From assembly GCA_020846875.1 (NCBI GenBank), contig JADLDB010000121.1, forward strand, positions 1-17,802: a stretch of 17,802 nucleotides of DNA. The letters run 5' to 3'. This DNA is from Myxococcales bacterium (GTDB lineage Bacteria; Myxococcota; Myxococcia; Myxococcales; Myxococcaceae). This document shows, piece after piece, positions 8,193 to 9,230 of this stretch; the first letter of the stretch is position 1; each line of letters begins with the position of its first letter. The translations under genes and the position numbers were made by a program. The notes beneath the pieces are model-generated. The model saw only the letters and a program-made list of their open reading frames with translations. It made no database searches and was not told the origin of the DNA.

Positions 8193-9230
8193 TTAGAAGG
8201 GCACCTGCGTCACCTGAGCGCCCCGCGCCACCAGCACGATGACGAGGCACCCCAGCGCGTAGAGCGGCGGGAAGCCGCGCGCGGCCCAGCGGTCGAGCCG
8301 GGCGATGCGCTGCAGCGCCGCGTCGGCCTGCGCCTTCGTCGCCGCCCGCGCCTCGCCGTCCTGCGTGGCGGCCTGCGCCTCCAGGTCCTTCGCCCGGTCG
8401 AACAGCCGCGTCACCACCACGCACTCCAGCAGCACCGCGGTCATCAACGCGTACGAGAGGTTGAAGAGCTGGTCGAGCAACACGCTGTTGCCCAGGTACG
8501 GCAGGTCGTCGGTGAAGGCCAACTGGAGGAAGACGACGGTGAGCAGCGCGGTGATGACGGTGCCCACCCGCGCCTCGACGTGCAGCGGCCTCAAGAAGAA
8601 GACGGCGAAGCAGCACAAGAGCACCAGCAGCACCGGCGGCGCCATGGTGAGGAGCAACAGCCGCAAGGGGCGCTGCAGCTTCACCCCGAAGCGGAAGCGG
8701 CTGAAGGGCCTGGAGTCCGCCTGCCCCAGGCCGCCCGGGTAGCTGAAGGGCACCACCTCGAGGATGCGCGCCACCGGCGTCCACCCGGGCACGGACAACG
8801 GCTCCACCACGCTGCTCTGCTGGTCGGCCACGTACGTCAGCGTGCCCGCGTCGTGGCGCACGTCCTCCACCTCCAGCACCAGCTTCTGCCAGTCCAGCGG
8901 GTAGGGCCCCAGGTCGAACTTGTGGAAGAAGCGGCCTTCCACCACGAAGCGCTGGTAGCGGCTGCCGTCGGCCTCGACGAGCGGCTCCTCGTACACCGGC
9001 GTGGAGGTGAGCGCCCAGGCCTCCAGCAGGTTGACGAAGCGGAAGCTCTTCGTGGGGTCGACCTCGCCCTTCCAGCGCATCCACATCACGAAGGACAGCG
9101 AGTAGGCGTTCTGCTCCAGGCTGACGGCCTCCGCGTTGCGCAGGTGCACGCCCACCGTGACGCGCTGGGGCTCGGCCCACGCCAGCGCCGGAGCCACCAC
9201 CAGGACGAGCAACGCGAGCCGCTTCATCAT
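8193..9230 (-). CDS. Prokaryotic pentameric ligand-gated ion channel (pLGIC, GLIC/ELIC-like) homolog, 345 aa. Signal peptide, beta-sandwich extracellular domain and four TM helices M1-M4.
   Basis: It is the C-terminal part of the giant spurious minus ORF 8193..15716, starting at MMKRLALLVLVVAPALAWA (ATG 9228-9230). VTVGVHLRNAEAVSLEQNAYSLSFVMWMRWKGE parallels GLIC VNTGIYLIECYSLDDKAETFKVNAFLSLSWKD. The pre-M1 arginines (RFRFGVKLQRP), an M2 followed by DLPY (the conserved LP motif), M3 and M4 are all present. Confidence 0.85.
   Translation of the reverse strand: MMKRLALLVLVVAPALAWAEPQRVTVGVHLRNAEAVSLEQNAYSLSFVMWMRWKGEVDPTKSFRFVNLLEAWALTSTPVYEEPLVEADGSRYQRFVVEGRFFHKFDLGPYPLDWQKLVLEVEDVRHDAGTLTYVADQQSSVVEPLSVPGWTPVARILEVVPFSYPGGLGQADSRPFSRFRFGVKLQRPLRLLLLTMAPPVLLVLLCCFAVFFLRPLHVEARVGTVITALLTVVFLQLAFTDDLPYLGNSVLLDQLFNLSYALMTAVLLECVVVTRLFDRAKDLEAQAATQDGEARAATKAQADAALQRIARLDRWAARGFPPLYALGCLVIVLVARGAQVTQVPF

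Follow-up and report, generated by a model that had tools for sequence, protein, structure and literature searches.

In this work, we analysed a window of 17,802 nucleotides from a Myxococcales contig, and sequence comparisons support the view that its minus-strand gene at 8193..9230 is genuine and encodes a conserved bacterial protein related to receptor channels of the nicotinic/GABA type. [quoted passage not shown] Only a handful of bacterial pLGICs have been characterised (i.e. GLIC, ELIC, sTeLIC and DeCLIC), and they serve as structural models for human neurotransmitter receptors; the gene described here adds a well-conserved, previously unannotated clade from uncultured Myxococcota. The gene and the parts recognised in its product are listed below with the evidence used for each.

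8193..9230, minus strand: complete gene of a pLGIC (Pro-loop receptor) subunit, 345 aa (GC3, homologs, dN/dS, Pfam, PDB sequence and fold searches)
9174..9230, minus strand: putative Sec-type signal peptide, residues 1-19 MMKRLALLVLVVAPALAWA, with an AxA cleavage motif before EPQ (read from the sequence)
8673..9173, minus strand: periplasmic beta-sandwich domain, residues 20-186 (DSSP strands of the model and ELIC profile alignment)
8892..8903, minus strand: [F/Y]PxD tip of the beta6-beta7 'Pro loop', Y110-P111-L112-D113 (motif match)
8865..8873, minus strand: loop-B Glu pair, E120-V121-E122 (aligned with ELIC E129/E131; equivalents of GABA-A beta E153/E155)
8595..8672, minus strand: pre-M1 Arg R187 and M1 with kink proline P199, residues 187-212 (conservation; model helix 189-212)
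8505..8576, minus strand: pore-lining M2, residues 219-242 (E-2', A-1', R0', G2', T6', L9', F13', L16', D20', D21')
8409..8504, minus strand: M2-M3 loop (L22'-P23'-Y24', P244) and M3, residues 243-274 (P244 conservation; model helix from 251)
8280..8408, minus strand: candidate clade-specific cytoplasmic helical hairpin, residues 275-317 (predicted model, pLDDT 91-97)
8196..8279, minus strand: M4 and short C-terminal tail, residues 318-345 (profile secondary alignments)

The membrane part of the protein was recognised by Pfam Neur_chan_memb (PF02932) above its gathering cutoff (29.7 vs 28.1 bits, E=9.7e-7), whereas Neur_chan_LBD (PF02931) stayed sub-threshold (11.7 bits vs a cutoff of 26) and was also missing in nearly all homologs. 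Of the two Pfam domains expected by the first-pass annotation, one was thus recovered directly, and homology of the ectodomain was established by means of a family profile built from 44 members and searched against solved channels. Because this profile aligns ELIC from beta1 to M3 (E=1.5e-17, 66.7 bits) and because the fold matches agree, the sub-threshold PF02931 score is attributed to the sensitivity of the model and not to absence of the domain. GlyR (7e-15), GLIC (5e-12, 48.5 bits) and sTeLIC (4e-11) were also retrieved; the closest solved relative by profile is therefore ELIC, and not GLIC, to which the ectodomain had initially been likened. A single-sequence phmmer search of the PDB returned GABA-A delta (the best match), DeCLIC and ELIC at 2e-7 to 9e-6. 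A monomer AF2 model was built from 46 related sequences and its secondary structure assigned by DSSP; it displays a beta-sandwich of ten strands that leads into a membrane bundle of four helices, and its best Foldseek matches were GlyR and GABA-A, both in agreement with the pLGIC fold that had been anticipated. Membership in the curated NCBIfam LGIC subfamilies was rejected, as scores lay far under the cutoffs for TIGR00860 (LIC; E=1e-13, 50.8 bits vs 280.2) and NF033918 (LGIC_1; 32.6 bits vs 500): the protein is related to both yet a member of neither.

The list of superfamily-conserved residues was taken from Table 1 of PMC4795631, in which [F/Y]PxD marks the tip of the beta6-beta7 loop and its Pro is the sole absolutely conserved residue. 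All seven of them (Y110, P111, D113, W150, R187, P199 and P244) are present and nearly invariant, together with R0' and L9'. The Pro-loop proline P111 was found in 94/94 clade and 137/137 sister-group sequences, and D113 in 93/94 clade sequences; W150, the beta9 core aromatic and counterpart of GLIC W160, is present in 96/96. Within the clade, R187 (in LQRP, aligned with the pre-M1 Arg of ELIC), the M1 14' kink proline P199, the M2-M3 loop proline P244 (23') and the basic R221 (0') each occur in 97/97 sequences, and L230 (Leu 9') in 96/97. In the superfamily, the pre-M1 Arg pairs with the Pro-loop Asp. The full pLGIC topology claimed from the DNA alone could be retraced, i.e. a signal-peptide-like N-terminus, YPLD, the pre-M1 Arg, M2 (TVITALLTVVFLQLAF), DDLPY, a long M3-M4 segment and M4.

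The clade comprises 94 homologs (44-97% identity) from 38 GTDB species, all of them MAGs, mostly of Myxococcota, and every one named 'hypothetical'. At the level of sequence, it was shown to be conserved, uncharacterised and distinct from GLIC, ELIC, sTeLIC and DeCLIC. An equally uncharacterised sister subfamily, delimited at E<=1e-30, groups into about 200 clusters at 50% identity, and its members come from sources such as a Ca. Sericytochromatia MAG and the fungus Hyaloraphidium curvatum. Both groups have in common the ectodomain and M1-M3 (150-295 bits), [DE]-x-R before M2, E122, D123, W50/W53 and the PGW motif. They differ in two respects: M3-M4 is mostly short in the sister subfamily (median tail of 54 residues vs 77 in the clade), and an ELIC-like aromatic cage, largely gone from the Myxococcota clade, persists in the sister subfamily (Y48, Y164, F168 and Y176 in 78-88%).

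Conservation along the protein peaks in M2 (0.93). Among known channels, GLIC carries a Glu at -2' (E222), and GlyR has basic residues at 19'/24'. Here, the -2' residue is acidic in 97/97 clade sequences (Glu or Asp) and in 117/134 (87%) sister-group sequences, which, together with D20'/D21', leads us to predict a cation-selective channel; the inspection of pore residues suggested beforehand was thereby carried out. Acidic rings at the cytoplasmic mouth occur in all known cation-selective pLGICs (PMC9897478). As a separate observation, the A-R of metazoan anion channels recurs within the pre-M2 motif E-A-R; A[R/K] and anion selectivity are correlated in metazoans, but in prokaryotes this motif is not a reliable predictor of selectivity (PMC4795631). 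An anion-selective pLGIC, such as the GlyR and GABA-A receptors whose M2 is the most similar, would fit with A-1'/R0' and with the resemblance of the run ARVGxxITxLLT to PARVxLGITTVLTMTT of GABA-A/Gly receptors, with the metazoan correlation just cited, and with the identity of the best single-sequence PDB match and of the top Foldseek matches. We nevertheless consider it rather unlikely, given the uniformly acidic -2' position where anion channels have Pro, the Asp-Asp at 20'/21' where GlyR is basic, and the association of acidic cytoplasmic-mouth rings with all known cation-selective members (PMC9897478).

The N-terminal part of the channel subunit showed more divergence. The putative signal peptide, modelled as a separate N-terminal helix (2-16), is poorly conserved in sequence, but a hydrophobic N-terminus is still found in homologs. 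The ectodomain is shorter than that of ELIC by ~19 residues, and its strands were modelled at 22-37, 42-53, 63-66, 75-78, 91-106, 114-123, 131-135, 150-162 and 176-186. In the loop-B Glu pair, E120 was found in 94/96 and E122 in 92/96 clade sequences, the latter also in 133/138 sister-group sequences. The role of this pair in ELIC and GABA-A has been described, and the orthosteric pocket of ELIC consists of loop-B E131, the aromatic cage F19/Y38/F133/Y175/F188 and loop-A E77 (PMC3316889). At these positions, the window protein keeps E122, Y164 and F176 and elsewhere has H29, V48, V124 and T75; across the clade, E122 is the only conserved residue of the ELIC-type pocket. Conservation within the ectodomain is lowest in loops B and C and in beta9 (0.47-0.48), and pocket aromatics conserved in the sister groups are lost in the clade, so that a classical small-molecule agonist is not assured. 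Since the aromatic cage common to the sister groups and ELIC is degenerate here, the ligand of the clade probably differs from theirs. By analogy with ELIC E131, the retained loop-B Glu would favour a cationic/amine ligand, protons or a metal ion.

Another peculiarity lies between M3 and M4, where the clade carries an insertion of 25-30 residues. Its length was measured as the tail following Y260 in M3 (hmmalign lengths were dropped, as local alignment truncated the sister-group C-termini), giving 85 residues in the window protein and medians of 77 in the clade and 54 in the sister group. The M3-M4 segment had been described as longer than that of GLIC; by this comparison, it indeed exceeds that of GLIC/ELIC-type bacterial channels in general. 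In the model, M3 would extend to 289 and, after a turn, a helix would run from 293 into M4; the number of residues aligned to this model is higher by 25-30 for eukaryotic chains whose MA helix is resolved than for GLIC/ELIC. Sequence conservation across the segment is no more than moderate (0.53). Just before M4, the motif LDRWAARGFPPLY is similar to IDRxSRxxFP of GABA-A/Gly receptors and ELIC; within this region, D313 is present in 89/93 clade sequences and P321 is invariant in A2. MA-type helix modules are usually regarded as eukaryotic, and our search found no literature specific to myxobacterial pLGICs or to prokaryotic intracellular domains. We tentatively suggest, from the predicted model, that the clade could represent prokaryotic pLGICs equipped with a compact, fully helical intracellular domain (extended M3 plus an MA-like helix leading into M4), which might form a cytoplasmic vestibule or docking site in the pentamer. 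Given the loss of the aromatic cage found in its sister groups, the clade might also respond to a signal other than a classical amine; we see this as a speculative proposal, with the odds against it.

With its relaxed orthosteric loops and its clade-specific cytoplasmic element, the protein might alternatively have kept the pLGIC fold while losing conduction, and serve in the periplasm as a sensor or scaffold, with signalling via the cytoplasmic hairpin. We give this very little credence: M2 is precisely the segment under strongest conservation, with the canonical E-2', T6', L9' and P23' pattern, and the coupling residues are invariant, as selection on permeation and gating would lead one to expect.

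The genomic surroundings of the channel gene involve two non-coding intervals.

8073..8192, no strand: spacer of 120 nt between the convergent stops, outside both genes; hypervariable indel site (comparison with L048 and L002)
9231..9338, no strand: divergent intergenic region of 108 nt, common to the channel gene and the GH1 lipoprotein gene; presumed promoter region (gene coordinates)

The MVP gene (5922..8072, plus strand) ends at the TGA at 8070-8072, so that the convergent stops are 120 nt apart. The spacing of 15 nt given by the first-pass annotation requires reading 35 more in-frame codons (8073-8177) through this TGA, and it does not stand, since an MVP ortholog of 92.6% identity and a strain that is 99% nucleotide-identical over the MVP 3' end both retain the TGA and lack the 35-codon continuation. 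No match to the 35-aa continuation was found by tblastn in the 88%-identical relative (L002) or at any other locus. The extended frame was likewise rejected as part of MVP, homology to L002 and to a 97%-identical strain (L048) stopping at the TGA. The continuation has a coding-like GC3 of 0.97. In L048 the spacer itself measures 429 nt; in L002 it reaches about 4 kb and contains two other genes, and homology to both breaks within a few bases of the two stops. A terminator consensus was looked for in 8073..8192 and not found, nor was any RNA structure detected (fold z-score 0.01).

Functional coupling of the channel to MVP, which the tight convergent arrangement might suggest, would account for the genes lying side by side and convergent both in the window and in near-identical strains. 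We assessed this linkage using six homolog contexts and neighbour clustering across 40 loci. The variable spacing between the stops argues against coupling, as do the absence of an MVP gene within 5-10 kb at the more distant loci examined, a tblastn search of the MVP protein against all loci that matched only the window's own lineage, and the clustering, which yielded MetK/PilZ or ASH-domain syntenies instead. MVP being adjacent in the window's own lineage only, the association implied by the earlier reading was rejected, and coupling appears highly improbable; the adjacency is an accident of recent deletions. A conserved operon partner was rejected too, the neighbourhoods falling into two unrelated vertical syntenies that cover 13-17 and 12 loci. 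A false lead is thereby removed: closeness to a vault-protein gene has no functional meaning here.

On its other side, the channel gene forms the final 345 codons of a 2507-aa ORF (8193..15716, minus strand), in which it had been rightly singled out as a real gene at the 3' end of a spurious antisense frame. Codon-position GC1/2/3 is 0.70/0.42/0.99 over 8196-9230 and 0.97/0.52/0.68 over the 2162 upstream codons; the latter mirror the plus-strand genes to which they are antisense, i.e. a GH1 glycosidase (9339..10850, E=2e-54) and a Ser/Thr-kinase of Pkinase/AAA_16/TPR type (10929..14747, E=1e-47). The gene starts with an ATG at 9230, followed by another ATG at 9227, and stops at 8193-8195; no in-frame start codon was found between 9330 and 9230. 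In the divergent region 9231..9338, a sigma-70 consensus was looked for and not found, and L002 has a glutaredoxin-domain gene inserted in its counterpart. The dN/dS ratio was 0.19 against an ortholog of 88% identity, indicating purifying selection; against distant homologs the ratio carries no information, as the GC3 constraint puts a ceiling on dS. Although very long spurious ORFs do arise in high-GC DNA, as 9231-15716 illustrates in this 71% GC genome, the idea that the channel ORF is likewise a chance antisense artefact is already refuted by its GC3 of 0.99 and GC2 of 0.42, by the conservation and dN/dS of the family, and by significant homology and fold matches.

Taking up the pLGIC subunit again, five copies would assemble in the inner membrane with their beta-sandwich domains facing the periplasm, where a chemical signal may act at or near the subunit-interface pocket. 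Its relay would involve the loop-B Glu pair, the beta10 Arg, the Pro loop, the pre-M1 Arg and the M2-M3 proline. M2 would line the pore, L9'/F13'/L16' presumably forming the hydrophobic gate, and a Glu ring at -2' (as E222 in GLIC) combined with Asp at 20'/21' would make this pore cation-selective. On the cytoplasmic side, the insertion could, according to the model, fold as a helical hairpin and might influence ion exit or bind a partner. The interest of the clade lies in its three peculiarities, i.e. a trimmed ectodomain, a degenerate pocket in which the loop-B Glu pair is retained and a short, apparently helical cytoplasmic insert recalling the eukaryotic MA helix. Provided that this insert is real, the channel could serve as a small and tractable system for studying intracellular-domain function and, should the novel intracellular-domain reading be true, as a minimal bacterial model of conductance shaping or of coupling to cytoplasmic partners; if it is not, the protein is simply another bacterial pLGIC homolog.

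Compared with known systems, the channel protein shares about 20% identity with ELIC of Erwinia/Dickeya chrysanthemi (PDB 2vl0, 2yn6). It differs from it at loop B (F133 to V124), loop D (Y38 to V48) and loop A (E77 to T75), in the pore pattern (E-2' and F13' here), and in the M3-M4 segment, which is 25-30 residues shorter in ELIC. The proton-gated GLIC of Gloeobacter violaceus, the weaker of these two profile matches, has a short M3-M4 linker, as has sTeLIC (from a Tevnia symbiont), which is gated by alkaline pH. The latter and DeCLIC (Desulfofustis) are bacterial pLGICs with significant sequence and fold matches to the channel protein. At its N-terminus, DeCLIC carries two jelly-roll domains, and three loop-F glutamates belong to its Ca2+ site (PMC9897478); neither the domains nor the Glu motif were seen here. 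Among eukaryotic Cys-loop receptors, those whose MA helix has been resolved (alpha7 and muscle nAChR, 5-HT3A) bear a likeness to the modelled hairpin. The channel protein differs from eukaryotic receptors by having no Cys-loop disulfide, MX helix or long disordered loop and, in contrast to their MA domains, its predicted cytoplasmic element would span ~43 residues, with M3 itself extended into a simple hairpin.

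The 17.8-kb window is GC-rich (~71%) and rich in long spurious ORFs, the longest of which (8193..15716, minus strand, 2507 aa) is coding in its last 345 codons only. These codons form the channel gene, whose codon-position GC (GC1/2/3 of 0.70/0.42/0.99 over 8196-9230) matches that of the plus-strand genes already verified. The 2162 codons upstream give 0.97/0.52/0.68 and a Gly/Ala/Arg/His-rich translation, and lie antisense to two real genes, those of the GH1 glycosidase and the kinase. The placement of the gene in the first-pass annotation, at the end of a spurious antisense ORF, was thus borne out. 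The gene starts at ATG 9230 (a second ATG occurs at 9227); the 100 nt upstream hold no in-frame start codon. Comparison with the nearest ortholog gave a dN/dS of 0.19, and the contig was also found in a public run (locus L001). The gene and its neighbours are as follows.

4768-5688, minus strand: 306-aa product combining an antitoxin-type HTH (AbiEi_4) with an endonuclease-like domain (DUF559/MTES_1575); gene divergent from MVP
5922-8072, plus strand: major vault protein (MVP) homolog, 716 aa (MVP_shoulder E=8e-28; Vault_3 above cutoff; Vault_2 weak)
8193-9230, minus strand: channel gene, 345-aa pentameric ligand-gated ion channel (pLGIC) homolog
9339-10850, plus strand: GH1 glycosidase (Pfam E=2e-54), lipoprotein-like signal sequence at the product N-terminus
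10929-14747, plus strand: zinc-ribbon/Pkinase/AAA_16/TPR protein, 1272 aa, zinc ribbon N-terminal, Ser/Thr kinase (E=1e-47)
14750-16054, minus strand: HD_5-domain protein, downstream of the kinase gene
16051-17775, minus strand: HEAT-repeat protein, downstream of the kinase gene

Beyond the AbiEi_4/DUF559 gene come an AhpC/TSA-Redoxin gene (3721-4317) and a gene for a 148-aa protein that matches no Pfam family.

The interpretation of the product as a pLGIC was supported by profile and PDB homology, fold and conserved residues. Of the two Pfam models proposed as a check, Neur_chan_memb passed its gathering cutoff (29.7 vs 28.1 bits), whereas Neur_chan_LBD failed (11.7 vs 26). A phmmer search against all PDB chains retrieved GABA-A delta (2e-7), DeCLIC (2.7e-7) and ELIC (9e-6), with alignments covering residues 59-300, Pro loop included; a profile of 44 family members reached ELIC at 1.5e-17 (beta1 through M3), GlyR at 7e-15, GLIC at 5e-12 and sTeLIC at 4e-11. 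The expected fold was recovered in the AF2 model (46-sequence alignment; pLDDT 86, pTM 0.72), which has ten strands within 22-186 and four helices (189-212, 215-242, 251-289 and 293-342). The best 50 Foldseek matches in PDB were pLGIC chains only, headed by GlyR 6vm3_A (E=2.5e-17, TM 0.72, ~345 aligned columns). The seven positions conserved across the superfamily (Jaiteh et al., PMC4795631, Table 1) are all kept and essentially invariant in the family (Y110, P111, D113, W150, R187, P199 and P244), as are, in the channel protein, R0' (R221) and L9' (L230). Homology, fold, conserved coupling residues and a conserved pore are thereby shown for this protein, whereas its mechanism as set out below is predicted.

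A word-indexed search retrieved 94 homologs (44-97% identity), nearly all unnamed or called 'hypothetical protein' and bearing PF02932 alone in precomputed annotation. In a pattern-seeded scan that took one genome for each GTDB species, 38 loci were found, all in MAGs, labelled mostly Myxococcaceae, Archangium or Myxococcota, with single Leptospiraceae, Gammaproteobacteria and Polyangia outliers. Among 1.84 billion representative proteins, the profile matched 5877 at E<=1e-3 and 220 at E<=1e-30; only ~9 representative clusters matched over the full length, and the next ~200, taken here as the sister group, stop near position 275 (end of M3). Sampled members of this group came from a Ca. Sericytochromatia MAG, unnamed metagenome proteins and one fungus, Hyaloraphidium curvatum, whose protein (KAI9012236.1; E=1.7e-51) has a long, Lys/Glu-rich M3-M4 segment; earlier surveys reported that multicellular fungi lack pLGICs. 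Scores against NCBIfam LGIC_1 (32.6 bits vs a cutoff of 500) and TIGR00860 (50.8 vs 280) were low, and identity to solved structures is ~15-22%. The protein belongs to the pLGIC/Pro-loop superfamily but to no characterised bacterial subfamily. In literature searches we came across no account of this clade or of pLGICs from myxobacteria.

The channel gene is monocistronic, with a convergent 3' and a divergent 5' neighbour. Although it had been described as ending 15 nt from the extended MVP frame, its stop codon is separated from that of MVP by 120 nt. The MVP TGA (8070-8072) is kept both in L002, the 88%-identical relative, where MVP is 92.6% identical (MAG GCA_040752975.1), and in L048, the 97%-identical strain, whose MVP 3' end is 99% identical at the nucleotide level. 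The window's MVP homolog has an Ala/Glu-rich, coiled-coil-like C-terminus. Past the TGA, 35 in-frame sense codons (8073-8177, plus strand) have a coding-like composition (GC1/2/3 0.74/0.54/0.97); no usable internal start was found in them, and they are missing from both close relatives. This stretch may be a relic of a deleted gene, a strain-specific read-through or a product of chance.

Homology to L002 and L048 is lost a few bases from the MVP stop and returns 3 nt beyond the channel stop. The spacer measures 120 nt in the window (8073-8192), 429 nt in L048 (5039-5467), where it includes 218 nt from the interior of an APS-kinase gene, 87% identical to the intact L002 copy, and ~4 kb in L002 (11036-15021), where an intact APH-family kinase gene adjoins that copy. 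The spacer is an indel hotspot, and the MVP-channel adjacency is therefore the outcome of serial deletions and not a conserved arrangement. L002 homology tightly brackets the channel gene (8190-9267), L002 having extra sequence on both flanks: on the 5' side, at a second indel (window 9268-9314, L002 8669-9956), a 1.3-kb gene for a 373-aa glutaredoxin-domain protein separates the GH1 and channel genes, which in the window are just 108 nt apart.

Across 40 loci no universal neighbour of the channel gene was found, and MVP adjoins it in the window's own lineage only. Two unrelated syntenies dominate: in 13-17 loci the downstream genes encode a 200-aa protein, MetK and PilZ, and in 12 loci two ASH/PapD-like Ig proteins are encoded upstream. 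Several loci also have an AhpC/TSA gene close by, a recurrence better explained by common descent of the region than by function. In an Archangium-labelled MAG (L004, 8378-11578), the channel homolog follows a same-strand GAF/PAS-guanylate cyclase gene at a distance of 60 nt and converges with the gene of a cNMP-binding protein, an arrangement not seen in the other inspected loci.

By segment, conservation is strongest in M2 (0.93), followed by the M1-M2 linker (0.87) and Pro loop (0.83); the least conserved ectodomain segments are loop B (0.47), loop C (0.48) and beta9 (0.48). Given the signal-peptide-like N-terminus (MMKRLALLVLVVAPALAWA/EPQ), the beta-sandwich would be periplasmic, and five subunits would build a pore lined by E-2', G2', T6', L9', F13', L16' and D20' of M2, with L9', F13' and L16' as the putative hydrophobic gate. 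GLIC has an E-2' filter, matched here by an acidic -2' residue in 97/97 clade and 117/134 sister proteins; D20'/D21' would make the outer mouth more negative. The acidic -2' also agrees with the acidic rings that all known cation-selective pLGICs have at the cytoplasmic mouth (PMC9897478), and from these features we predict that the channel is probably cation-selective. The A-1'/R0' pair beside the acidic -2' also resembles the metazoan anion motif; Jaiteh et al. (PMC4795631) caution that the pre-M2 region is an unreliable predictor of selectivity in prokaryotes.

Beyond the invariant Tyr of M3 (Y260), the window protein has a tail of 85 residues (clade median 77), against a median of 54 in the sister group (50-59 in 105/129). 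The gap between E269 and D313 is usually 43 residues in the clade, a 33-residue variant also existing. The insertion is modelled as a helical hairpin (pLDDT 91-97), M3 extending to 289 and a helix running from 293 straight into M4. This insert and the degenerate pocket described below are variant features deserving specialist attention; the wider interest is modest, since bacterial pLGIC homologs form thousands of sequence clusters and the membrane domain was already flagged by Pfam.

Compared with ELIC, whose ectodomain is ~19 residues longer, the clade has deletions in the beta2-beta5 connections. Pocket positions were mapped through an ELIC profile alignment and the ELIC pocket of PMC3316889. 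The sister group keeps an ELIC-like pocket, with Tyr at 48 (ELIC Y38; 111/126), Glu at 122 (E131; 133/138), Tyr at 164 (Y175; 121/137), Phe at 168 (116/137) and Tyr/Phe at 176 (F188; 125/137). In the Myxococcota clade, by contrast, conservation is confined to the Glu pair E122 (92/96) and E120 (94/96); Val occupies position 48, His, Arg or Phe is found at 176, and just half of the sequences have Tyr at 164. The window protein has H29, V48, T75, E120, E122, V124, Y164, L168, F176 and R178. Loss of the aromatic cage suggests that the clade's ligand differs from that of the sister groups. E120 aligns to ELIC E129 and GABA-A beta E153, and E120/E122/R178 are the counterparts of the ELIC E129/E131/R190 chain, which lies beside the ligand ammonium and relays ligand binding on toward the membrane domain (PMC3316889); this analogy favours protons, a metal ion or a cationic compound as the agonist.
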